Shown here piece by piece: positions 49,492 to 62,321 of a stretch of 64,000 bases of DNA; the stretch's first letter is position 1, and each line of letters opens with the position of its first letter. The notes beneath the pieces were generated by a model that saw nothing but the letters and a program-made list of their open reading frames with translations, was not told the DNA's origin and did no database searches. The stretch comes from Candidatus Thorarchaeota archaeon. GTDB lineage: Archaea > Asgardarchaeota > Thorarchaeia > Thorarchaeales > Thorarchaeaceae. The stretch is taken from NCBI GenBank assembly GCA_019057475.1, contig DXJO01000007.1, positions 43,192-107,191 on the forward strand. Direction: 5' to 3'. The translations under genes were made by a program, and so were the position numbers.

Positions 49492-50826
49492 ATGGTGCGA
49501 GTCATTCCATTCAAGGCCTACAGATACGAAAAGTCCAAGGTCAAGGATTTGTCGCAGGTTGTAACGCCTCCATACGATGTGATGAAGGGCGAGAAGGTTG
49601 ACGAGTTCCAAAGGCGTTCCGAGCATAGTATCGCGTGGATTATCAAGAATAAGCCAGAAGAGGGTGACACGAGCCAGAACAACCAGTACACTCGAGCTGG
49701 TAATATACTCAACAAGTGGATCGACGGCGGCATCCTAGTCCCCGACGATAGAGAGAGCTTCTATGTGTACGGTCAGGACTTCAAAGTTGATGGCAAAAGT
49801 CTATTCCGATTTGGCTTCATCGGGCTCATCAAGCTTGAGGAATTCGCTAAGGATGTTCAGGTGAGCAAGAATGTTTTCAAGGGCGTTCTTCAGCACGAGG
49901 AAACCTTTCCAAAGGATATCCAAGATAGACTCAATCTGTCCAGGAACTGCATGGCACAGTTTGGTCAAATCTTCGTCATCTACCCGGATCACAAGGGGGA
50001 TGTTGACAAAGTTCTGGAGAAGTACATGAAGAACGTGCCAACCACAGACATCACAGATTCCAAGGGCATACACCATAGATTGTGGCGCATTGATAATCCA
50101 GAAGATACCAAGATGATTACCAAACATATGGAGAATAAGTATGTCATTATCGCAGATGGACATCATCGCTATAAGACCGCATTGGCACTCTCCGAAGAGA
50201 ATCCTGATTTGGAAACCGCCAAATACCGGATGCTTTCATTTGTGAACATGAGCAATCCCGGACTCGTAATCCTTCCAACTCACAGACGGATACAGAACCT
50301 CGAAGCCTTTTCCAAGGAGAAACTCTTGGAGCAGCTTAATGCTTACTTCAAGGTTGTTGAGTTCAAATCCAAAGACAGCATGTTTGAACTGATGAATAAA
50401 CAGTTCGACGAGGGCAATCATGCATTCGGACTCTTCATGGATGATGGCAAGTTCTACGCTCTCATCTTGAAGAACAAGCGAATCATGAACGATCTTCTTC
50501 CAGATAAATCGGAAGAACTCCGCGGATTGGACGTAGCAATACTGCATACGTTGATTCTGGACAAGACGCTTGGAATTGACAAGAAAAAGCTCGCAGCTGG
50601 CAGCATTAAGGGCGGGGGCTACGTGTCCTACATCAAGGGAATCGGCGATGCAGTCGACGAATCAATAAGGGCAGTCGAGGGCGATGCCCAAGCCGTATTC
50701 TTCATGAATCCAACTCGTATTGGAGAAGTAGAGGCGGTTTCCAGGAACTTCGAAGTCATGCCGCAGAAGAGTACATTTTTCTTCCCTAAAATCTACACAG
50801 GTTTTACGATTAACAAATTGAAATAG
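49492..50826 (+). CDS. DUF1015 family protein
   Basis: PFKAYRY, PPYDV, HEET, IADGHHRY, PTHR, MPQKSTFFFPK. Confidence 0.88.
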   Translation: MVRVIPFKAYRYEKSKVKDLSQVVTPPYDVMKGEKVDEFQRRSEHSIAWIIKNKPEEGDTSQNNQYTRAGNILNKWIDGGILVPDDRESFYVYGQDFKVDGKSLFRFGFIGLIKLEEFAKDVQVSKNVFKGVLQHEETFPKDIQDRLNLSRNCMAQFGQIFVIYPDHKGDVDKVLEKYMKNVPTTDITDSKGIHHRLWRIDNPEDTKMITKHMENKYVIIADGHHRYKTALALSEENPDLETAKYRMLSFVNMSNPGLVILPTHRRIQNLEAFSKEKLLEQLNAYFKVVEFKSKDSMFELMNKQFDEGNHAFGLFMDDGKFYALILKNKRIMNDLLPDKSEELRGLDVAILHTLILDKTLGIDKKKLAAGSIKGGGYVSYIKGIGDAVDESIRAVEGDAQAVFFMNPTRIGEVEAVSRNFEVMPQKSTFFFPKIYTGFTINKLK

Positions 50827-50830
50827 CAAG

Positions 50831-51925
50831 GTGACAGTTATGACAAAAAGAGCTTACAACTTCTATGCAGGCCCTGCAACAATGGCGCTCCCCGTCATAG
50901 AGCGGGCTAAGAAGGAACTACTGGATTTCCAGGGTACCGGAATGTCAATCATGGAGATTTCTCACAGGTCGAAGGAGTATGACAAGGTACACCATGATGC
51001 AATGGATCTTGTCACTGAGCTGATGGGACTCCCAAGCGACTACAAGGTAATGTGGCTACAGGGCGGAGCATCATCTCAATTCTACCAAGTGCCGCTGAAC
51101 CTGCAGCTTCCAGGAAAACCCATGGAGTACGTGAACACGGGGGTTTGGTCCAAGAAGGCGATTGCTGAGGCAAAGCTGTACGGGGAGGTAAGGGTCGTTG
51201 CTTCATCGGAGGACAAGACATTTTCCTATATTCCAAAAGATTTGGACTTCAGCGATGACGCAGCATTTGTACATATATCCGGCAACAATACGATATATGG
51301 CACCGAATGGAGCAAGGAGCCCAAAGTCCCATCGGGCGTACCACTCGTATCTGACATGTCATCGAGCCTCATGAACAAGGTGATCGACCCCAAGAAGTAC
51401 GGAGTCATGTACGCAGGCGCGCAAAAGAACTTGGGCCCGGCTGGAGTGACCTTGGTGATTGTTAGAGAAGACCTCCTTGGCAGAGTTCCAGAGAACGCAC
51501 CAACAATGCTGAAGTGGAGTACACATGCTGCAAAGGACTCCATGTTCAATACACCTCCGGCGCTAGCGATTTATCTCTGCAAGCTCTCTCTAGAGTACAC
51601 AAAGGAGATTGGAGGTGTTCCAGAGCTAGAGAAGAGAAACAAGGAGAAAGCAAAGATTCTCTATGACCTGATAGATGGGTCTAACGGCTTCTACAAGGGT
51701 CATGCAGAGAAAGACTCGAGGTCCCTCATGAACGTGACTTTCAATTTGAAGGACAAGGACTTGGAATCCAAGGCAGTGGAAGAGGGCCTTGCAAGAGGTC
51801 TCGTGGGACTCAAAGGACATCGTTCAGTGGGCGGAATGCGAGCATCAATCTACAACGCTATGCCTATTGACGGCGTTAAGGCGTTAGCAGAGTTTCTCAA
51901 GGAATTTCAAGAGAAGAACGAGTAG
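50831..51925 (+). CDS. serC: Phosphoserine aminotransferase (bacterial type)
   Basis: NFYAGP, EISHRS, QGGA, GAQKNLGPAG (PLP Lys), GHRSVGGMRAS. Confidence 0.95.
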   Translation: MTVMTKRAYNFYAGPATMALPVIERAKKELLDFQGTGMSIMEISHRSKEYDKVHHDAMDLVTELMGLPSDYKVMWLQGGASSQFYQVPLNLQLPGKPMEYVNTGVWSKKAIAEAKLYGEVRVVASSEDKTFSYIPKDLDFSDDAAFVHISGNNTIYGTEWSKEPKVPSGVPLVSDMSSSLMNKVIDPKKYGVMYAGAQKNLGPAGVTLVIVREDLLGRVPENAPTMLKWSTHAAKDSMFNTPPALAIYLCKLSLEYTKEIGGVPELEKRNKEKAKILYDLIDGSNGFYKGHAEKDSRSLMNVTFNLKDKDLESKAVEEGLARGLVGLKGHRSVGGMRASIYNAMPIDGVKALAEFLKEFQEKNE

Positions 51926-52478: not shown

Positions 52479-55400
52479 CTAGCTCCCACGTGACTTTCTG
52501 CGGCCGAGAAGCATAGCAATCACTATGAACGCTAGGATAGCGCTGAGCATCATGGCGAGTAGGAGGTAGTCGGGTTCATCAGGCAAGGGCGGTGATGGAG
52601 TAGTTGTTTCAGTGGGAGTTGTTGGAGTCGTAGTTCCCGTCGAAGACTGCACAGTGTACATGTAGTCATCTGATACAGCCCAGTTGCCTAGGGTGTCAAC
52701 TGCGTAGATCCTGAACGTGACCTCGGTTCCAGCTGAGAACTGAGGTATTGCTCCTTCGTAGTGAGTACCATTGCACACCATCGTCACGTTGTTCCAAGCA
52801 GTTCCATTGTAGTAGGACAGTATGACCGTTGCCACAGCAGTGTCATCAGTCACCACCACTCCGATTGTAACATTGACTAGTTCGGTCACGTTTGTGGGAG
52901 TGCGAACAGGCGTTCCGATTACTGGAGGGTTACTCTCGTCTGCAACTGTGATGTAACTGTATGTTGGCGTCGTATTGATGTTGCCTTTGGTGTCGTTCGC
53001 CCAGAAGAAGTACTGAACGGTCGTCCCTAGCGTTTGCCCGAGTATTGTGGCACGGTATGTTCCAGTATCATTGGTCATCGCGATGATATGGAATGTACTC
53101 CAAGAGTTTGTGGTGTAGTTCAGCAGAACTGTATCAAGCCCTGCCGCGTTTACAGTTTCGGATGCATCAATTGAAACTGCTACGGCACGCCCTTCTCCTG
53201 GAGTTGTGGCATTGCGCCAAGGGTTGCTCAGTGAGGGTCCAACATTGTCATCTATCCAAAATGATACATTCAGAGTCTCTGCATCATTGCCTGCACTGTC
53301 ATTTGCATAGACGCTATAATGAACCGTTTCAGAGAAAACAAAAGGACCAATGGATACTGTGAAGTTGCCTGATGGCTGCTGTGTCATCTCTGCATAGGTC
53401 GGATCAATCCAGCCACCGACCTCGTACTTCAAGAAGACTCTTGCTGAACCTGAGTTATCTGTCACATTGGCTTCAAACAAAGGTGCATGATAATACTCCA
53501 CAATAGATGGTGCATAATGAACTGAATGAATCACAGGCGAAGTCAAATCAAAACTTAGAACAGCACCGAGAACATCCAGTTTTCCGTGGCTCCAGATGGG
53601 ATTGGGTACAGCGCCAGTAAAGCCATCAGTAACTGCAGTGGATTTGATGATTTCATTCACATCGCTGCCAGCTGAGGAGTTAGCTTGAAGGATGAGCGCA
53701 GCACAGCCGGCCACATGTGGTCCCGAAGCGCTAGTGCCGCTGAATAGGCGATAGCTTCCAAACTGCTCACCGAACGGGAGAGCCCCATATCTATTATACC
53801 ATGTTGCCCAAGGAGAGGCATTAGCATAGTCGGAAACCACATCGAAGCCACCCGGCGCAGCTACACCTTGTTTCTGAACTTCGTCAACTCGCGGGCCGCG
53901 GGATGAGAAGCTGGCAATGTCGCCAATTGTTTCGGGACTTACTAAGTCTCTAGTTCTGTAGCTAGCAACACTCAACGCTTGATCAGCTGTGGAGGGCCAA
54001 GTGATCTCATAGTTGTCTGATATATCACTCAACCAGATTGCACCTCCACTCCACGAGTTGCTGGCGTCTGAGATGTAGGAGTGAAATGTCGTGGTCGAGG
54101 GGCTGGTTACATTGATTTGATGATAAGGCGGTGCAGCGACAACTGTAGTCGGGAGTGGAGAGGTGGTTGAGTTGATGTGAATTCCTAGCATTCTAGTTAA
54201 ACGGCTGGACGTGGAAATGAACGATTCAACCGATAGATTGTTTCCACCAAAACTGACCGTAGGTTCCAAGAACGAGTTGCAATATCCAATACCAGGATGA
54301 AGATGTATCGTAAAAACAGGTGGACCAGTCCAGGATTGTAAATTCATGATTATGCTGAAGTTGCAGGTACTGAAATCGGTGTCATTAACCGAGAGAACCG
54401 TGATGTAGACATCTTCAATGTGAGGCTCCATGCTTGGTATATGGAAGTCCACGTAGTATGGTGTATCCGGGTTTGTCGAAAAGAGAGCGTGTTTATCCTT
54501 GCCGCCAAGGTTTCCGCTAGGTGCAATCACTGGTACACCGTTAGCAACAATCGTATCGATAAGTGACTCACTTGCAGAGCTTCCATCAAGATAGTGATAG
54601 GTCCACGAGCCAATCTCGATTAGTATCACATCTGCACCATGGTTGTACGCCCAAGTCAAGCCTTCCTCGATTGTGAGCCAATCGTTCGACCCGCCTATGA
54701 CCTTAATCATCATAAGCTCGGAGTTGGGAGCAACGCCCACCATCTTCCTATGTCCAAGCTGACCACCAAGGAGTATTCCGGCGACCGCGGTTCCATGCCC
54801 ATCTGTGTCATCGTGTGTAGAGGTCGTTAGATTTACGCTACGGTCCCACACCTGAATATCTCTGGATGGAGTTCCGTCCCCCTCTACAATATACTTGGTC
54901 TTGGGGGTGCTCAACATAATCAGCTTCTCGTCGACATCCAGCTGACCATTATCGTTCGTATCATTGACTACAAAGAAGGGTTCACCTATGTCGGGCTCAG
55001 CATTCTGTAAGACACTATCTGCCCAGATCCATTCATTGGCCGTGTCGAATATCCCATCGGTATCATAATCAAGGTAGTACATCACCTCGTCAGACGTAGC
55101 GAGGCCACTGTCGTCCAAATCAATAGCATCTGTGCCATTCGTGGGAAGGCTATCGCCATCATCAAGCCAATCGTATTCGCCCCCATCTGCAAACCAGAAA
55201 TCAGGGTGCTTCCAGTCTATCCCCGAGTCCAAATCGGCAATGAGCAATCCCTCACCCGTGATATTCCTATCAAGACTGTCCAAGAGGTTCCAAGCATCAT
55301 CTGCATTTATCTCAGGAATTGAAACGTCCCTTGTGAGGTGAATGTGGTCTCTTGGAGTCTGAACGTCAATGTCTTCTACAATGCCCATCTCGACTAGGAT

Positions 55401-55706
55401 GGAGAAACCCTCAGCAGTGCCCCTCATAACATAGTAGTCACCTACTCGGCTTGAAACGGAGTTTCCAAGACTGAATCGGATTCCCAGTAATTCAAGCTCT
55501 TCTGCTAAAGAGTCCGTAGGAATATCAGAGAACCTCACTACAACCGGAATCTCGTTTCCAAATGTTTCCGCAAGAGACCAGAAATCAAGGTCTCTGGCTG
55601 CATCGTTCTCAGCCATCATCACCTTTTCTGGTTGCGACGGCATCAGTGGAATGAACCCGAGAATCAGTACAACTAACAAGAGCGTGCCTAGAATTATCTT
55701 CCTCAT
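52479..55706 (-). CDS. Membrane-anchored S8 peptidase with C-terminal Ig-like repeats
   Basis: LDSG, HGTAVA, GTSASGPHV; three repeats ending ANDSAGN/ANDTKGN/AVDTLGN; Thr/Pro linker plus TM. Confidence 0.9.
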   Translation of the reverse strand: MRKIILGTLLLVVLILGFIPLMPSQPEKVMMAENDAARDLDFWSLAETFGNEIPVVVRFSDIPTDSLAEELELLGIRFSLGNSVSSRVGDYYVMRGTAEGFSILVEMGIVEDIDVQTPRDHIHLTRDVSIPEINADDAWNLLDSLDRNITGEGLLIADLDSGIDWKHPDFWFADGGEYDWLDDGDSLPTNGTDAIDLDDSGLATSDEVMYYLDYDTDGIFDTANEWIWADSVLQNAEPDIGEPFFVVNDTNDNGQLDVDEKLIMLSTPKTKYIVEGDGTPSRDIQVWDRSVNLTTSTHDDTDGHGTAVAGILLGGQLGHRKMVGVAPNSELMMIKVIGGSNDWLTIEEGLTWAYNHGADVILIEIGSWTYHYLDGSSASESLIDTIVANGVPVIAPSGNLGGKDKHALFSTNPDTPYYVDFHIPSMEPHIEDVYITVLSVNDTDFSTCNFSIIMNLQSWTGPPVFTIHLHPGIGYCNSFLEPTVSFGGNNLSVESFISTSSRLTRMLGIHINSTTSPLPTTVVAAPPYHQINVTSPSTTTFHSYISDASNSWSGGAIWLSDISDNYEITWPSTADQALSVASYRTRDLVSPETIGDIASFSSRGPRVDEVQKQGVAAPGGFDVVSDYANASPWATWYNRYGALPFGEQFGSYRLFSGTSASGPHVAGCAALILQANSSAGSDVNEIIKSTAVTDGFTGAVPNPIWSHGKLDVLGAVLSFDLTSPVIHSVHYAPSIVEYYHAPLFEANVTDNSGSARVFLKYEVGGWIDPTYAEMTQQPSGNFTVSIGPFVFSETVHYSVYANDSAGNDAETLNVSFWIDDNVGPSLSNPWRNATTPGEGRAVAVSIDASETVNAAGLDTVLLNYTTNSWSTFHIIAMTNDTGTYRATILGQTLGTTVQYFFWANDTKGNINTTPTYSYITVADESNPPVIGTPVRTPTNVTELVNVTIGVVVTDDTAVATVILSYYNGTAWNNVTMVCNGTHYEGAIPQFSAGTEVTFRIYAVDTLGNWAVSDDYMYTVQSSTGTTTPTTPTETTTPSPPLPDEPDYLLLAMMLSAILAFIVIAMLLGRRKSRGS

Positions 55707-56177: not shown

Positions 56178-56657
56178 CTAGTCCACATGAACTACTAGAA
56201 CAGCACAGTTGATTCTTCGAATTACCCGCTCGGTAGAGCTTCCAAGACCAGGCTTCCTACTTCTGCTCAAGCCTTTGGATCCCATGACGATTATGTCGAC
56301 ATCAATGGATGCTGCAAGTGCTGTAATCCTATCAGAAGGGAGCCCCTTTTCAAGCACAGTCTCGACCTCAAGCCCATAGCCGAGGGCGGCTGACTTGTAT
56401 CTCTGCAGAAGTTTTTCTCCATTTTCCTCGTAATGCCTGAGGATATCCTCAGGGTCCTTATCAGACATCCGTGCGACCTGCTGCACAACGCCTGTGTTGA
56501 TTACGTGAACAATATAGAGTTTGGACTTGGTCAATTCAGCAATTTCGTAAGCAACTACTGCTGCTCGATCCGAGCCCTCACTGCCATCAATTGGCAACAT
56601 GACTCTTTTGGTCCTGCTCAGCAATCTACCCGGCTCGTGGTACAGGGGGGCCTCCAT
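56178..56657 (-). CDS. Universal stress protein
   Basis: PIDGSEGS, IIVMGSKG, GSSTERV. Confidence 0.92.
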   Translation of the reverse strand: MEAPLYHEPGRLLSRTKRVMLPIDGSEGSDRAAVVAYEIAELTKSKLYIVHVINTGVVQQVARMSDKDPEDILRHYEENGEKLLQRYKSAALGYGLEVETVLEKGLPSDRITALAASIDVDIIVMGSKGLSRSRKPGLGSSTERVIRRINCAVLVVHVD

Positions 56658-56730
56658 AATATCCGCCGTAATTGAAGTTATCTCTAAATAAGGTTGCTAT
56701 CTAAAGGACGTGGGGAGTGATAATCTGGGC

Positions 56731-57237
56731 TTACTTCACAACAAACACGGGGCAACTGGCCCCTAGGACCACTCTCTCCGTAGAGCTCCCCATTCCTGAC
56801 TTCATAACTGCGGTGCCGCCATGTGAACCCAAAACTACCAAATCCACTCCGAGCTCTTCCGAGAGCGCAATTAGCATATCAGACGGAAGCCCTTTATCGA
56901 GTACTGTTTCAACCGGGATGTTAAAATCCCTGGATGCATCTTCATAGCCCTGCAGTATTCTCTTGCCATTGACTTCATACTTCTGAAGCAGTTCCTCTTC
57001 ACTGACATCAGACATCACAGAGATGTGCTTGATGTTGGGCAACGGGATGATATACACAATGTAAACCTTCGATTTTGTCAGCTCACCTATCTCAAAGGCA
57101 ACAGTAGCAGCTCGTGCAGCCCCTTCACTCCCGTCAACTCCAACTATAATTTTCCGTATCTTGCAAAATATCCGGTCGGGCTCACAATAGATAGTGTCTT
57201 CCAAAGCTGTATTCACCAACAGGATGCCCTGAAACAA
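56731..57237 (-). CDS. Universal stress protein (tandem paralogue)
   Basis: GVDGSEGA, VVLGSHG, GSSTERVV...CPVFVV. Confidence 0.9.
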   Translation of the reverse strand: MFQGILLVNTALEDTIYCEPDRIFCKIRKIIVGVDGSEGAARAATVAFEIGELTKSKVYIVYIIPLPNIKHISVMSDVSEEELLQKYEVNGKRILQGYEDASRDFNIPVETVLDKGLPSDMLIALSEELGVDLVVLGSHGGTAVMKSGMGSSTERVVLGASCPVFVVK

Positions 57238-57382: not shown

Positions 57383-59569
57383 CTATCTGAATCCACCTGA
57401 AACACAGGCACTGTGACACGCACTATGGCAAGCACTGTGGCAGACGCAAGCACTATGGCATGCGCTGTGACATGCGCTATGACAAGCATCATGCGAAACA
57501 CATGCGGAGTGACAGGCGTCATGGGACACGCATCGACTGGTCTGCTCAAGAATGGGACTTAGTGGCTCCGAGATGACGCTTCCAACGCCCTCGAAAACGT
57601 CCCCGATTGTATTTGTGACATTGCTCATAATCTCAGATGTCGTGGCTGCAACATCACCGACGACGCGGCCCACATCACTGATTGCATGACCAGTAGCTTC
57701 CGAAAGATCATTGAACCAAGCAGGTATCTTTGGCGGCGAGATGGTTCCTCCAGGATGCCTGAAAGCGTCCTTCAGGTATGCGTCATGACGCGGGTGCTGG
57801 TAAAGGTAAAACCAAGCCCAACCGTTGTCATCGTAGTCCTCATCGAAGTAATAATCAGTGCGGCCTTCAAGCGTTGGATTAGATTCAAGTTTCTCCCAAG
57901 CGCCCTCAACTCGTTCATCATGGGCGACCTTGGTTGCCTCGAAGTCAGCATCCCACGCCTTGGCCTGGACTTTGTCTGCAATCTCTTCAACCATATCGTC
58001 TACTTTGTCAGCATCAAGCTCGTTGTTCACAATTGCATCGAGGAACATCTCTTCGTAGTATGTTAGGTCCTCAAACTGTAGACCTGTAGCAGAGAGTTTC
58101 AACGGATCGCTGGATATGACGCGAACCGCACCCTTACGCACACAAGACATCAGAATCATTGAGATTAGCGTCTTCCGACTGGTATTCACAAAGAGGGCTG
58201 ACTCCACGGGGTCGATGTCAGCCACCGTGCCGGGCGTGCCAAAAGTCTGTATTGCTATCTCTGGACTCTGGTACCCGGTCGTGGTTTCATCTGCCTCCCA
58301 CCTTGCACCATATGAGCTAGTTACTTTCTTGTAGCCATATGCAATGAGCCCAATGGCAAACAGACTACCTACTCCAAATGCAAACATCTGGGGGTCAATC
58401 AGCGGTGGCACTGCCTCCGTCACGTAGACAGCGATGTCGATGACCAGCCATTCTCCGGGGTCGAGATTATCAGCGGATACTAGAAAGCTAATCGTGAGGA
58501 TGGCAGGAAGATTATCCGGGATAAACGTGCAGAAGATGTAGATGGTGTCTCCGCCCGACAGGCTCTCAGCATGCCACGAAGTCTGCTCTGAGGTCAATGT
58601 TAGGTTCGCATCGTAGTTCATAGAAACGATAACATTCTCCAGGTCAGCGTCACCGTAGTTGAACACATTAACTGCCACTGAAAACTCTGTGCTGGCATAG
58701 GCGTTGATTATTCCGGCTGTATCGTAAGCCAGAATGCCAGGCATCAGATATTGTTCGTACCAGCTCCAGTTCGTGTAGTGAAATACTCTAAAGTGATTTT
58801 CAGCAGCTAGAGAGGAGTGACTCAAACTGACGCTGAAGTTGCGCGGAGAAGCTCCGGGGTCGGATGGATAAGCCAGAAGGTTCTCCTCATCGAACGAGTA
58901 CTGCGTTTCTGACACGTCATACAGACCCTGACGATAGTCGACCACATAACCTGCATAGTCGGCACCATCAGGAGTTATCCCACCCTCATCGGTAATCCAA
59001 GACGCATTCATCGCAATCGGATATATGACACGGACATTCTCAAAGCCTACACTCTGCGACCAGATGACAGGTGCCCAGTTGAGGACTGCAAGATCCCCTG
59101 TCACTTCCTCGCCCGAACCCTCCAGCGTGAAAGTTCCCGTCGTCTTCTCTAGAATCCGGTTTGTGCTGAAGTAGCCGAAGACAACTGTCACTGTTTCGCC
59201 CTCCTGTGTCCGAGGCAGCCAATCAAGCTTGTATCCTTCAGACACGACTTCAACAGTCAGGTCATACCTATTCTCACCCATCACCACATAGGCTCGACCC
59301 GGGTCGTAGATGCTTGTTTCCTGTATACCAAATAGATCAAAGCCGCCAAGTGACTCACTATGAACAGTGAAGGTCATCCAATAGGTCACGTTGATCCTAC
59401 CGTTATTCATTACTACGACGTCAACCAACACACTATCGACACTCACAACCGGACTCTGACTGGGTGTGCTTGTTCCCACGCACATGGGAGCAAATGCAAG
59501 CGCAACCAGCATTAGAGCAAAGATGAACCTCGGGCCATGTTTCACCGAAAAACTCCCCTTGAAACTCAA
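57383..59569 (-). CDS. Membrane protein (signal peptide, extracellular beta domains, TM, DUF2207-like region) with C-terminal Cys/His repeat tail
   Basis: N-terminal hydrophobic signal; TM FAFGVGSLFAIGLIAYGY-KK; ends in CVSHDA/CHSA repeats and CVSGGFR. Confidence 0.85.
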   Translation of the reverse strand: MSFKGSFSVKHGPRFIFALMLVALAFAPMCVGTSTPSQSPVVSVDSVLVDVVVMNNGRINVTYWMTFTVHSESLGGFDLFGIQETSIYDPGRAYVVMGENRYDLTVEVVSEGYKLDWLPRTQEGETVTVVFGYFSTNRILEKTTGTFTLEGSGEEVTGDLAVLNWAPVIWSQSVGFENVRVIYPIAMNASWITDEGGITPDGADYAGYVVDYRQGLYDVSETQYSFDEENLLAYPSDPGASPRNFSVSLSHSSLAAENHFRVFHYTNWSWYEQYLMPGILAYDTAGIINAYASTEFSVAVNVFNYGDADLENVIVSMNYDANLTLTSEQTSWHAESLSGGDTIYIFCTFIPDNLPAILTISFLVSADNLDPGEWLVIDIAVYVTEAVPPLIDPQMFAFGVGSLFAIGLIAYGYKKVTSSYGARWEADETTTGYQSPEIAIQTFGTPGTVADIDPVESALFVNTSRKTLISMILMSCVRKGAVRVISSDPLKLSATGLQFEDLTYYEEMFLDAIVNNELDADKVDDMVEEIADKVQAKAWDADFEATKVAHDERVEGAWEKLESNPTLEGRTDYYFDEDYDDNGWAWFYLYQHPRHDAYLKDAFRHPGGTISPPKIPAWFNDLSEATGHAISDVGRVVGDVAATTSEIMSNVTNTIGDVFEGVGSVISEPLSPILEQTSRCVSHDACHSACVSHDACHSACHSACHSACVCHSACHSACHSACVSGGFR
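57386..57532 (-). repeat. Degenerate 12/18-bp coding repeat encoding 7x CHSA and 2x CVSHDA
   Basis: Amino-acid repeat is exact while the codons vary. Confidence 0.9.
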
Positions 59570-59598
59570 CTTCTCATCTGACTACTTCCGTTGACACC

Positions 59599-60033
59599 TC
59601 AGTCGCCCCTTCTCGCTCGGACCACATCGGCCTGAGCAATAGTCAGACTTGAGAGGTCCGCCTTGGCAGCGGCCCATTCATCAAGGTCAGGAAATTCCTG
59701 AATCATGCCATCCCATATGAGATGGTAGACTCTCTTGAGGACGACCGATGAATTCGATTCCTTCCCCATGTATTCGAAGAACGCCTTGACCTGAGCAGGA
59801 GTCTGCTCTGTCATCTCCTGAGGTATGTCGGTACCAAAGCCTGCAAAGGCCACCTCAAGTTCGCGAAGGACATCCATCCGCTCACGGATGCCCGCAGCAA
59901 TAACAGGCAAATCAATGTCAAAGGCACTGAAGCTCATGATTAGCTTCTTCTTGCTAATTACGCCGTACGGCAGTTTGATTTCACTTGCGCTCAACTGACT
60001 CTCTCTCCAAATTGACGCTGTTCTTTCTCGCAC
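59599..60033 (-). CDS. Hypothetical protein, probably co-transcribed with the Cys/His-tail protein
   Basis: 29-bp gap to 59569; same strand. Confidence 0.65.
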   Translation of the reverse strand: MRERTASIWRESQLSASEIKLPYGVISKKKLIMSFSAFDIDLPVIAAGIRERMDVLRELEVAFAGFGTDIPQEMTEQTPAQVKAFFEYMGKESNSSVVLKRVYHLIWDGMIQEFPDLDEWAAAKADLSSLTIAQADVVRARRGD

Positions 60034-60130
60034 CTTTGGCTAGATAAGCGTTTCAGGTCGTCACACAGCTAATCGTCTTGAGCGAGCAAACGCGAATCCT
60101 TAAGACGATAGGAACGCTTCACCGATTTCA

Positions 60131-61552
60131 ATGCCCGTTCCTCAGTATGACTACAAGCTTGAAGATTTGCAGTGGGTTCCTGCATTCATGGAGGAAGTCA
60201 AGGACTACTTCTTCGCAAGAGCAGAAGACAATCTCCTGATTTTGAGACCCAACAAAGTGATGCATCTAAATGAAACAGGCTTGAGAATGCTGAAGCTGCT
60301 CCAAGAGGGGTCAACTCCCGAGGAGATCGTTGATCACTTCGTCAGTGAGCATGGAGCTGAGTTTCAGCTCGTGCTCAATGATCTCGCCAACTTCGTGGAC
60401 GACCTGAGAAACATGACGATGGGCAATCAGAACATCTATTCCTACAAGACCGCACGAATCATTCCCTTTGGCACGGGGGAGATCAAGTATCCTGTACTCA
60501 GTGAGATAGCCGTGACTTACAGGTGCAACAACAAGTGCCGGTTTTGCTACGCGTACTCGCCCTACCGGGAATCAGGAGAAATGACGACAGAACAGATCAA
60601 GCGAGTGATAGACATCATCGTCGATGACGCACATGTTCCAAGCCTGTCCTTCACCGGAGGAGAGCCCACGCTTCGAGAAGACCTCTTTGAACTCATTGCC
60701 TATGGCAGAGAGAAAAGCCTCCGTGTGAACCTTATTACTAACGGCAGGCGTTGTGCTGATAAGGGATATGTGCAGTCCCTGGTGGATGCAGGACTCAACA
60801 GCGCACAGGTTTCAATAGAGGGGCCCGATGCAGAATCTCATGACTACATCGTGGGGATCCCGGGAGCCTTTGACCAAACAGTTCAGGGAATAAAGAACCT
60901 GAGAGAGACCGACATCTACACACACTGCAACACAACAATTTGCAGCCCGAATGTTGATCGGTTAGAAGACCTTGTAGACTTCCATGCAGACGAGTTAGGA
61001 TTGACGTATTTCAGCATGAACATGATCATTTACACAGGAACTGCTGCCAAGTTACGCGATGAATTGCAAATCACCTTCTCTGAAATCGGAGATATCGTTA
61101 GGCGTGTGAAGAAGAGAGCGAACAAGAAAGGCATCCAGTTTGTATGGTACGCTCCAACACCGGTATGCCTTTTCAACCCCATAGCACACGGCCTGGGTGC
61201 AAAGCATTGTGCAGCCTGCGACGGCCTAATTTCTGTTGATGCCGAGGGAGGGCTTCTTCCTTGCTCAAGCTTCAGTGAGCCCGTTGGTAATTTGCTCGAA
61301 GAAGGATTTGAGAAGGTATGGTACAATCGAGCATCCAAGTTTTGGAGAGCCAAGGAGTATGCACCTGAGGGGTGCAAGAGCTGCGAACACTTCCATTACT
61401 GCTATGGTGCGTGCCCATTGTACTTCGATGTCATGGGCTTCGAGGAAATTGCACCTTTCTGGTCCGAGAAAGGTAAGATTGGGGTGAAATTAGACGACCT
61501 TAGGTTGCGACTGAGAAGGCGGGTAAGAGGCGACCAGCGCGGGATTACCTAG
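60131..61552 (+). CDS. Radical SAM/SPASM enzyme with N-terminal PqqD/RRE domain
   Basis: LNETG...TPEEIV...DLANFVDDL (PqqD-like); CNNKCRFC; TGGEP; SPASM CAAC..G.LLPC..GNL..CKSC....C..AC. Confidence 0.92.
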   Translation: MPVPQYDYKLEDLQWVPAFMEEVKDYFFARAEDNLLILRPNKVMHLNETGLRMLKLLQEGSTPEEIVDHFVSEHGAEFQLVLNDLANFVDDLRNMTMGNQNIYSYKTARIIPFGTGEIKYPVLSEIAVTYRCNNKCRFCYAYSPYRESGEMTTEQIKRVIDIIVDDAHVPSLSFTGGEPTLREDLFELIAYGREKSLRVNLITNGRRCADKGYVQSLVDAGLNSAQVSIEGPDAESHDYIVGIPGAFDQTVQGIKNLRETDIYTHCNTTICSPNVDRLEDLVDFHADELGLTYFSMNMIIYTGTAAKLRDELQITFSEIGDIVRRVKKRANKKGIQFVWYAPTPVCLFNPIAHGLGAKHCAACDGLISVDAEGGLLPCSSFSEPVGNLLEEGFEKVWYNRASKFWRAKEYAPEGCKSCEHFHYCYGACPLYFDVMGFEEIAPFWSEKGKIGVKLDDLRLRLRRRVRGDQRGIT

Positions 61553-61607: not shown

Positions 61608-62321
61608 TCACCGCCCAAGTTTGTTCGTGATTAAGTGACCACAGTAGGGGCAATATTCTTCTTCACCAGGCAATATTGGGGATGAGAGCTTTCCTCCACA
61701 GTTCGGACAGAATGTGACGGCCTTAGGCAGTTCCTCAACGGCCTCTTTCGTGTAGATCACCCTGGAATTTTCGTCAATCGTTCCACGGAACTTGCCTTTC
61801 TTGGATAGCTCAGTTATGGCTTCAACTATCTGTTCGTCTGTAGCTTCTGTGACCTCTCTCAGTTGGTCAAAAGTCATCCTCCGCTGAGCGAAGAGCAAAT
61901 GTAGGATGCTCTCCTTCAGTTCAACCGCTCGGGGACTGACTATCTCGTTGGAACGGCGGTCTAGGTACATTAGCGGCATTCGGCGGGTGGCCATCTTCTC
62001 CGCAGCGTCCGCTACTGCCTTCTGAGAAACCCCCAGTTCCTTGGCGGCTGCTGTTACGCTAATGCGACCTTCTCTCTGCACTAACGGCAAAAGTCTATCA
62101 CCGATACCTCCAATTCGGGCCTCTCGCGTTCCCTTCAATATCAACCACAATCCAATGACAAATTCTGGAAGACCCAATAGCCCCCACGAGATAACTGTGT
62201 ACAGCAAGACGTCACTGGGGGTTGTGACAACATCGAGTGTAGCATTATACACAATCAGAGCCATAACGGCGGAGATGATAACGAGTATTAGCCCGATGAG
62301 CTGTGCCAGACGCGGATTCAT
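61608..62321 (-). CDS. 2-TM protein with winged-helix/PCI-like domains and C-terminal zinc ribbon
   Basis: Two TM; ISVTAAAKELGV; ELSKKGKFRGTID (PCI-like G.ID); CPNCG...CPYCG. Confidence 0.7.
   Translation of the reverse strand: MNPRLAQLIGLILVIISAVMALIVYNATLDVVTTPSDVLLYTVISWGLLGLPEFVIGLWLILKGTREARIGGIGDRLLPLVQREGRISVTAAAKELGVSQKAVADAAEKMATRRMPLMYLDRRSNEIVSPRAVELKESILHLLFAQRRMTFDQLREVTEATDEQIVEAITELSKKGKFRGTIDENSRVIYTKEAVEELPKAVTFCPNCGGKLSSPILPGEEEYCPYCGHLITNKLGR

Follow-up and report, generated by a model that had tools for sequence, protein, structure and literature searches.

Two described systems are among the closest to the locus reported here. In Methanococcus voltae the radical S-adenosylmethionine (SAM) enzyme CrpC installs thioethers in the large archaeal protein CrpA (PMC13692751). 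In the biosynthesis of lasso peptides, which belong to the peptides made by the ribosome and modified after translation (RiPPs), the RiPP recognition element (RRE) reads the motif [YW]xxPx[LVIFA] in a cleft between strand 3 and helix 3 (PMC13381572, PMC12710340); in LppB, residues N33 and D70 bind the proline kink and the tyrosine hydroxyl (PMC13381572). The locus lies in a 64,000-nt stretch of a Candidatus Thorarchaeota genome (contig DXJO01000007.1), referred to below as the window; coordinates are positions within it unless prefixed by an L locus label. It encodes a 473-aa enzyme with RRE, radical SAM and SPASM domains (60131..61552, plus strand) and, close by, a 728-aa single-pass type I membrane protein (57383..59569, minus strand), the presumed substrate. 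As the first-pass annotation had read it, this protein ends in a 49-aa tail with 11 Cys and 9 His, the presumed modified core (57386..57532, minus strand).

We propose that the enzyme is a dedicated maturase for the neighboring membrane protein. Within an old, cross-domain system, it would be a RiPP-type enzyme that reads an internal, never-removed leader on a receptor-like membrane protein with a ribophorin-I-like exterior and a GOLPH3-like interior part, spans a folded domain and builds a polycyclic thioether or His-Ala tail (up to ~10 rings) serving as a cytoplasmic metal, redox or signalling module. Taken as a whole, we hold this reading only tentatively, at a rough probability of 0.35. 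That the tail is the substrate of the enzyme, whatever the chemistry, seems to us likely; that the chemistry is Cys-thioether formation on the intact protein is an even bet, this being the most likely chemistry and a His-Ala cyclophane the next.

The tail protein and its linked radical SAM enzyme

The tail pattern occurs as a coding repeat nowhere else in the 3.3-Mb genome. Among 20 distinct Thorarchaeota copies the tail diverges by 22% in DNA and by 1.5% in protein, against 31% protein divergence in the 49 residues that precede it; over their whole length the membrane proteins are mostly 55-64% identical. Judging by these sequences, the tail is under strong purifying selection, and the synonymous divergence rules out an artefact of slippage. 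Homologues with other Cys-repeat tails, which the first-pass annotation had suggested looking for, do exist. The wider family has two tail types, the His-type found here and a Cys-Ala-type, (A-C)n, in a sister clade; hybrids are rare. A fixed H-x-A-C block accounts for 385 of the 423 internal Cys in 48 His-type tails. Position +3 from His is Cys in 97% of 410 His positions and position +2 is Ala in 96%, while position -1 is Cys in only 80%; the register is (H-x-A-C)n instead of the C-H-S-A repeat read initially. Cys-Cys spacing in these tails varies (4, 5 or 6), and Trp or Tyr occasionally replaces His, as Asp, Asn or Ser does Ala. The aromatic-x-X motif present in His-type tails (H-x-A) is absent from Cys-Ala-type tails, which have no aromatic residue, and the only feature common to both types is a Cys preceded by a small residue. 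The tail ends in small conserved termini. Hybrid tails (L078:9143-10462 and P0147) run from His-type repeats into a Cys-Ala end, and their partner is a His-clade enzyme. No credible small Cys-rich or YxxP open reading frame (ORF) was found in the 52-64 kb part of the window, in agreement with the earlier remark that no short precursor lies nearby.

The domain order first proposed for the enzyme also holds. Its PqqD/RRE domain (PF05402, residues 37-94) scores 39.4 bits against a cut-off of 23.4, its Radical_SAM and SPASM domains exceed their Pfam cut-offs, and the RRE profile matches the lasso RREs TbiB1 and TfuB1 as well as PqqD structures, as expected of an N-terminal RRE fold. Among 52 homologues, the CxxxCxxC motif (C132/136/139) and the SPASM residues C360/378/415/418/424/428 are conserved in all, C346 in 50, and the RRE residues N47 and D84 in 51 and 50, respectively. 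A position 11-12 residues past C428, mostly Glu in His-type enzymes and Cys in many Cys-Ala-type enzymes, may supply the last ligand of cluster II. The two enzyme clades share the same seven SPASM Cys at 30-35% identity. The best solved profile relatives include the sactipeptide synthase SkfB (E 3e-37), with the epimerase YydG weaker (E 5e-9); alignments to SuiB, CteB and anSME stopped short of C346. No NCBIfam equivalog is reached by the enzyme, including AhbD (156 bits against 500), PqqE (123 against 381), HxsC (106 against 268), ACGX (87 against 400), MftC and NirJ. A second radical SAM copy, frequent in Cys-Ala-type loci (L093:7315-8469, L107:10673-11818, L072:2-1231, L073:2288-3709), has neither CxxxCxxC nor most of the SPASM Cys, yet retains an RRE with the Asn/Asp pair; from its sequence it is likely a pseudo-enzyme partner.

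The link between enzyme homologues and Cys-tail proteins holds from both sides. The membrane-protein gene is present in all 22 Thorarchaeota loci that have DNA upstream of the enzyme, although in one of them (L010, genome G349) it breaks off after the first 90 codons. Three enzyme homologues outside Thorarchaeota (~48% identity; one of them labelled Chloroflexota) share an operon with the gene for a His-type tail protein, and of the informative loci picked from the tail side, 6 of 7 have the enzyme no more than 3 kb away. Across 400 Asgard genomes, which include kin and are not independent, the enzyme occurs in 140 and the tail protein in 126 (each in 33 of the 90 high-quality genomes); by hand tally, 119 genomes have both, 253 neither, 21 the enzyme only and 7 the tail protein only. 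On re-checking, split or broken genes explained the exceptions G019, G150, G012, G280 and G349. The enzyme tree and the tree of the tail-less cytoplasmic domain share their supported clades, each having a single Cys-Ala clade, and the agreement includes two genomes in which the genes are on different contigs. Congruent trees and linkage together indicate co-inheritance, not catalysis. By sequence the module is cross-domain, occurring in Asgard archaea, Chloroflexota and other lineages, both archaeal and bacterial, and it is not specific to Asgard archaea.

Several loci depart from the common arrangement. The tail-protein gene of G280 (L104:4364-5452) is truncated just after the YxxP strand described below, and that of G358 (L011) is interrupted by one TAG; sequencing error or decay may lie behind these genes and the L010 gene alike. 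Two tail-protein paralogues accompany one active enzyme at L107 (5016-6752 and 7449-9110) and also at L109. In family f14 (G093-G111; L101-L103) all 19 genomes have the enzyme but only 8 yielded the tail protein, with a methyltransferase still beside the enzyme; loss of the tail protein or a different substrate is possible there.

A candidate docking strand inside the membrane protein

The sole invariant column across 79 full-length homologues of the membrane protein is P436, and [YWF]xxPx[ILVMF] is found at this column in 75 of them. The motif, Y433-x-x-P436-x-I438 in this protein, lies in a predicted RRE recognition strand (residues 431-444; 58238..58279, minus strand) just past the membrane helix and ~245 residues upstream of the tail; across the family, 176-329 residues separate it from the first tail Cys. 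On the enzyme, N47 and D84 are 37 residues apart, identical to the spacing of N33 and D70 in LppB.

Docking of the RRE on the YxxP strand was written down as a prediction ahead of the complex run. The model of enzyme and membrane protein scored 0.82, and the best of three controls 0.00; of 80 solved complexes 58 attain the mark used, as do 2 of 110 mismatched pairs, counts that hold only roughly here. The runs share at least 30% of contacts, and the partner's pLDDT (a predicted score of the local distance difference test) is at least 64. The confident interface joins enzyme residues 44-50 and 84-88 and the linker 107-116 to partner residues 431-444, and a second contact is predicted on a patch of partner helix 524-544. 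The tail is not placed confidently, which is no evidence either way. Recognition had originally been sought in the ~60 residues before the tail; a leader directly before the tail falls outside the confident interface, and the model puts the RRE next to the membrane instead. The likely docking site of the enzyme is thus predicted to be an internal strand of the lasso-leader type (Y433-P436-I438), away from the tail. RRE position 84 is Thr opposite one partner without the Tyr and Gln opposite one Trp partner, a pattern known from paeninodin; since another Trp partner retains Asp, this covariation is only suggestive.

Possible chemistry and alternative explanations

If the enzyme is a dedicated maturase, four steps may be envisaged. 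First, supported by conservation and the model, the RRE would bind the unstructured Y433-x-x-P436-x-I438 strand just inside the membrane in lasso-like fashion and would also touch the folded cytoplasmic domain at a second site. The tethered radical SAM core would then work along the flexible tail and abstract hydrogen from the small residue, nearly always Ala, before each Cys. By analogy with known thioether synthases, the radical would close onto the Cys sulfur to give several thioether rings, at -2 Da each. Finally, and speculatively, the protein would stay whole in the membrane, and its rigid His/thioether tail, together with a small two-transmembrane-helix (2TM) zinc-ribbon protein encoded alongside, would form a metal- or partner-binding module, perhaps of a receptor-like envelope or stress protein. 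Thioethers are favored because the two tail types have nothing in common but a Cys that follows a small residue, because SkfB is the best solved match, and because CrpC offers a precedent.

Several observations weigh against this proposal. Thioether-forming enzymes leave an auxiliary-cluster site open (CteB versus SuiB), and the conserved C346 could fill that site. The variable Cys-Cys spacing beside a fixed H-x-A-C fits a His-centred ring at least as well. In 11 genomes of one Asgard family, one in which the genes are unlinked, the enzyme is present but no tail protein was found; seven of these genomes (74-89% complete) were still empty when re-tested. One genome, G369, has the tail protein alone. 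Co-inheritance as a cassette does not in itself show an enzyme-substrate relation, and the score of the complex may echo memory of solved RRE-leader complexes, which would speak for likeness and not for binding by this copy.

The alternative that survives best, although we think it unlikely, keeps the same docking but leaves the tail unmodified: the membrane protein would anchor or regulate the enzyme, the tail would have a metal, Fe-S, sulfur or electron role, and the enzyme would act on another molecule. Cys/His and Cys-x-Cys tails do resemble metal-binding modules, the top NCBIfam scores of the enzyme are to heme-pathway enzymes, though far below cut-off (156 against 500 bits), and some members of one family have the enzyme only. 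Moreover, in several Cys-Ala-type loci the catalytically dead second copy still has an intact RRE, which suggests that docking can persist without catalysis. However, in all characterized cases known to us an RRE with a YxxP motif is substrate-delivery machinery. In addition, the tail type changes together with the enzyme clade, and no small-molecule pathway gene is conserved across loci spanning archaea and bacteria.

It is also rather unlikely that the His-type clade forms three-residue cyclophanes, joining a His ring carbon to the Ala C-beta in each H-x-A and leaving the Cys free for metal. The offsets from His given above (+2 Ala and +3 Cys nearly constant, -1 Cys much less so) fit such rings, the rare Trp/Tyr and Asp/Asn/Ser replacements are all compatible with an aromatic-x-X rule, and a fully ligated auxiliary cluster would suit C-C chemistry. 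There is a precedent in HaaB, which makes His C2-Ala C-beta links on HAA (PMC11499958). On the other hand, the sister clade, with its seven identical SPASM Cys, acts beside tails that have no aromatic residue, to which this chemistry cannot apply; hybrid tails carry both repeat types, and no triceptide-synthase model is among the 25 best NCBIfam matches.

We consider it improbable that the tail undergoes other radical chemistry, whether C-alpha epimerization, Cys oxidation (to formylglycine or a thioaldehyde) or desulfurization, with methylation added in Cys-Ala-type loci. Alternating small-residue repeats do recall epimerized peptides, SPASM enzymes such as anSME oxidize Cys in proteins, and in most Cys-Ala-type loci the gene after the enzyme encodes a class I methyltransferase. 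Yet the similarity to epimerase structures is weak (YydG compared with SkfB, above), and a D-serine-dehydratase-like neighbor, a possible hint of D-residues, does not track the module.

A similarly improbable account, somewhat harder still to sustain, makes the protein a tethered RiPP precursor: once modified, the tail would be cleaved and released as a peptide, perhaps in response to a signal that the ectodomain senses. The tail does follow a low-confidence linker and has a RiPP-like composition and small conserved termini. Release of a peptide, raised as an option in the first-pass annotation, nevertheless finds no support in the loci: none of those read has a conserved peptidase or exporter, no conserved cleavage motif was found before the tail, and the S8 protease encoded at a distance of 1.7 kb (52479-55706) has a signal peptide, its gene not being seen in related loci. 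Lastly, a chance neighborhood of unrelated genes is largely refuted, for although the genes are divergent and not one operon in this genome, they are operonic in most other lineages, are lost jointly and have congruent trees, quite apart from the motif and the model.

Should the maturase proposal be true, membrane signalling would make use of RiPP chemistry as a lasting protein modification, in archaeal relatives of eukaryotes too. A probable substrate would be named for a widespread, unannotated radical SAM family that reaches beyond the 140 of 400 Asgard genomes into Chloroflexota and other lineages. The rule for RiPP searches would change as well, as a recognition sequence could be embedded in a large membrane protein, with hundreds of residues between it and the site of modification. 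Such targets would be missed by precursor finders and by Cys-content screens: this protein has 12 Cys in 728 aa, under the 5% threshold of PMC13692751. The proposal would also offer a way to approach the function of DUF2207-like proteins. With a docking strand, defined RRE residues, a soluble 418-728 fragment and two natural tail types, it is directly testable in Escherichia coli, including by swaps.

Locus organization and comparison with known systems

The membrane protein begins with a hydrophobic, signal-like stretch and has, as first described, a single internal membrane helix (~residues 395-413; 58331..58387, minus strand, from hydrophobicity and the model) followed by KK at 414-415. Five N-glycosylation sequons precede the helix and two follow it. 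Basic residues follow the helix family-wide, which fits the cytoplasmic location proposed for the tail. In the AlphaFold model (mean pLDDT 82.8), a beta-sandwich ectodomain and an Ig-like domain are followed by the membrane helix, a disordered segment (418-442), a folded domain (~454-604), helices and the low-confidence tail. Structure comparison of the beta-sandwich (~residues 38-273; 58751..59458, minus strand) matched the oligosaccharyltransferase chain 6ezn_A/6s7o_E (Z 16.4, root-mean-square deviation (rmsd) 3.0, 187 residues aligned), which we take to be Ost1/ribophorin I, and also N-terminal domains of M1 aminopeptidases (ERAP1, Z ~12). The Ig-like, CARDB-like insert (~residues 279-386; 58412..58735, minus strand) is lineage-specific and was recognized by a profile match below cut-off together with structure comparison. 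The DUF2207_C-like cytoplasmic domain (~residues 451-604; 57758..58219, minus strand) tentatively has a GPP34 fold: GOLPH3 (Z 7.2, rmsd 4.4, 161 aligned) and Vps74 (Z 6.6, rmsd 4.9, 177 aligned), both below the Z 8 guide, were the top two among 48,161 chains and the sole matches at Z of at least 5. Neither the ectodomain nor the cytoplasmic fold is Asgard-specific, and a common fold shows no function.

The membrane-protein, 144-aa and enzyme genes are each single-copy in the genome. Homologues and a ribosome-binding-like site suggest later starts for two of them, GTG 59545 for the membrane protein (720 aa) and TTG 59994 for the small protein (131 aa), with which the divergent gap, given as 97 bp in the first-pass annotation, would be 136 bp. 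The small protein (144 aa as annotated; 59599..60033, minus strand) is soluble, Cys-free and a Thorarchaeota-specific accessory found only where the module is present. It has no family match, an atlas search gave nothing above 0.82, and its derivation from the Chloroflexota coiled-coil gene was rejected at an hhalign probability of only 5-7%. The module reaches 62321, past the 57383-61552 first described, to take in a 237-aa 2TM-winged-helix-zinc-ribbon protein (61608..62321, minus strand). The 19 Thorarchaeota genomes without the two main genes, seven of them more than 90% complete, also lack both the 237-aa and the 144-aa gene. By hhalign the 237-aa family is related to a 164-aa gene of the Chloroflexota operon (98.0%), and that gene to the small 2TM-zinc-ribbon gene of Cys-Ala loci (98.6%), from which a common core of enzyme, tail protein and 2TM-zinc-ribbon protein follows. 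Extras in other His-type loci are a 395-aa coiled coil or a 330-350-aa membrane protein; in Cys-Ala loci they are a methyltransferase and sometimes the second radical SAM copy. Most Cys-Ala-type loci have the class I SAM methyltransferase as the gene after the enzyme (L068, L069, L073, L081-L083, L092-L095), whereas His-type loci lack it. At one locus that looks archaeal, a PspA/IM30 gene (L110:6279-6971) adjoins the 2TM-winged-helix accessory gene, a possible link to membrane stress.

Other neighbors were rejected as parts of the module. Two tandem Usp genes (56178-57237, minus strand) lie directly downstream of the tail gene, and some other Thorarchaeota loci have Usp genes at a distance of a few more genes; the S8 subtilase (52479-55706, minus strand) is a secreted protein of 1075 aa that has a long insert, Ig-like repeats and a Thr/Pro linker and is anchored in the membrane at its C-terminus. 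Neither is tied to the module in loci outside Thorarchaeota. A D-serine-dehydratase/D-threonine-aldolase-like pyridoxal-phosphate enzyme sits right after the enzyme in most Thorarchaeota loci (e.g., L003:9416-10576); it occurs in module-free genomes, is absent from this genome and does not co-vary. A phosphoesterase downstream of the tail gene in some loci was not found in this genome. Further away (49492-51925, plus strand), a 444-aa gene that looks like DUF1015/SerK-type and then a phosphoserine aminotransferase-like gene were noted on sequence appearance. A scan with sigma-70 promoter and terminator models, which are ill-suited to archaea, gave chance level only.

Typical DUF2207 members end in Gly/Ser-rich tails. 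The ecto- and cytoplasmic domains of the membrane protein show remote homology to DUF2207 (PF09972/PF20990) and TIGR04222 proteins. Of its relatives, 16 of 79 match PF09972 (best E 9e-8), one of the DUF2207 models that the first-pass annotation had suggested running, with weak TIGR04222 matches among the relatives as well; the protein itself fails the gathering score of PF20990 (13 bits against 33), has no PF09972 match and is a remote relative only. A DUF2207 mutant of Streptococcus mutans is stress-sensitive (PMC10457818). We found no paper linking DUF2207 to radical SAM enzymes, and none on the enzyme/membrane-protein pair in a search that did not cover subscription papers.

Among modification systems, CXXX-repeat proteins (TIGR04114/04115/04117, PF27846), also suggested at first pass, have Cys at every fourth residue, but the likeness is one of repeat composition only. 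Nine of 36 family members match TIGR04117 weakly and one PF27846 weakly, the enzyme scores 23.4 bits against 350 for the TIGR04115 maturase, and a genome search with the TIGR04114 target repeat (cut-off 20) gave no match at the tail. The triceptide synthases HaaB and HtkB (PMC11499958) share aromatic-x-X motifs including His-x-Ala, but they act on short precursors with no Cys requirement, and no sequence model supports the likeness here. QhpD/QhpC, CteB, PapB and SkfB have the same domain order and a Cys-rich target. QhpD/QhpC and the ranthipeptide and sactipeptide systems differ in their short substrates and removed N-terminal leaders, whereas the motif here is internal to a membrane protein, and in QhpC the acceptors are Asp/Glu; the PapB model gives the enzyme 91 bits against 340. 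The lasso/LPP pairs (TbiB1, TfuB1, LppB) share the motif and the conserved RRE Asn/Asp with the same spacing, but in those pairs a short leader begins with the motif, ~15 residues from the core (PMC13381572), and here it lies inside a 728-aa membrane protein.

There is a further likeness to CrpC/CrpA (TIGR04463, rSAM_vs_C_rich), also an archaeal RRE-radical SAM-SPASM enzyme with seven SPASM Cys that adjoins a large protein with a C-terminal Cys repeat, although the enzyme reaches only 45.9 bits against a cut-off of 525. CrpA differs in being soluble, 29 kDa in size, and in having an N-terminal recognition sequence and C-x-x-Q/D motifs (PMC13692751); in the present case the docking strand is internal, the repeats are H-x-A-C or A-C, and the target is an integral membrane protein. 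By analogy, the system would work like CrpC/CrpA, QhpD/QhpC and the RRE-dependent RiPP maturases while lying outside every curated family tested. What appears to set the system apart is that its target is an integral membrane protein, that the leader is internal and needs no removal, that a folded domain separates leader from core, and that the repeats are of new types.

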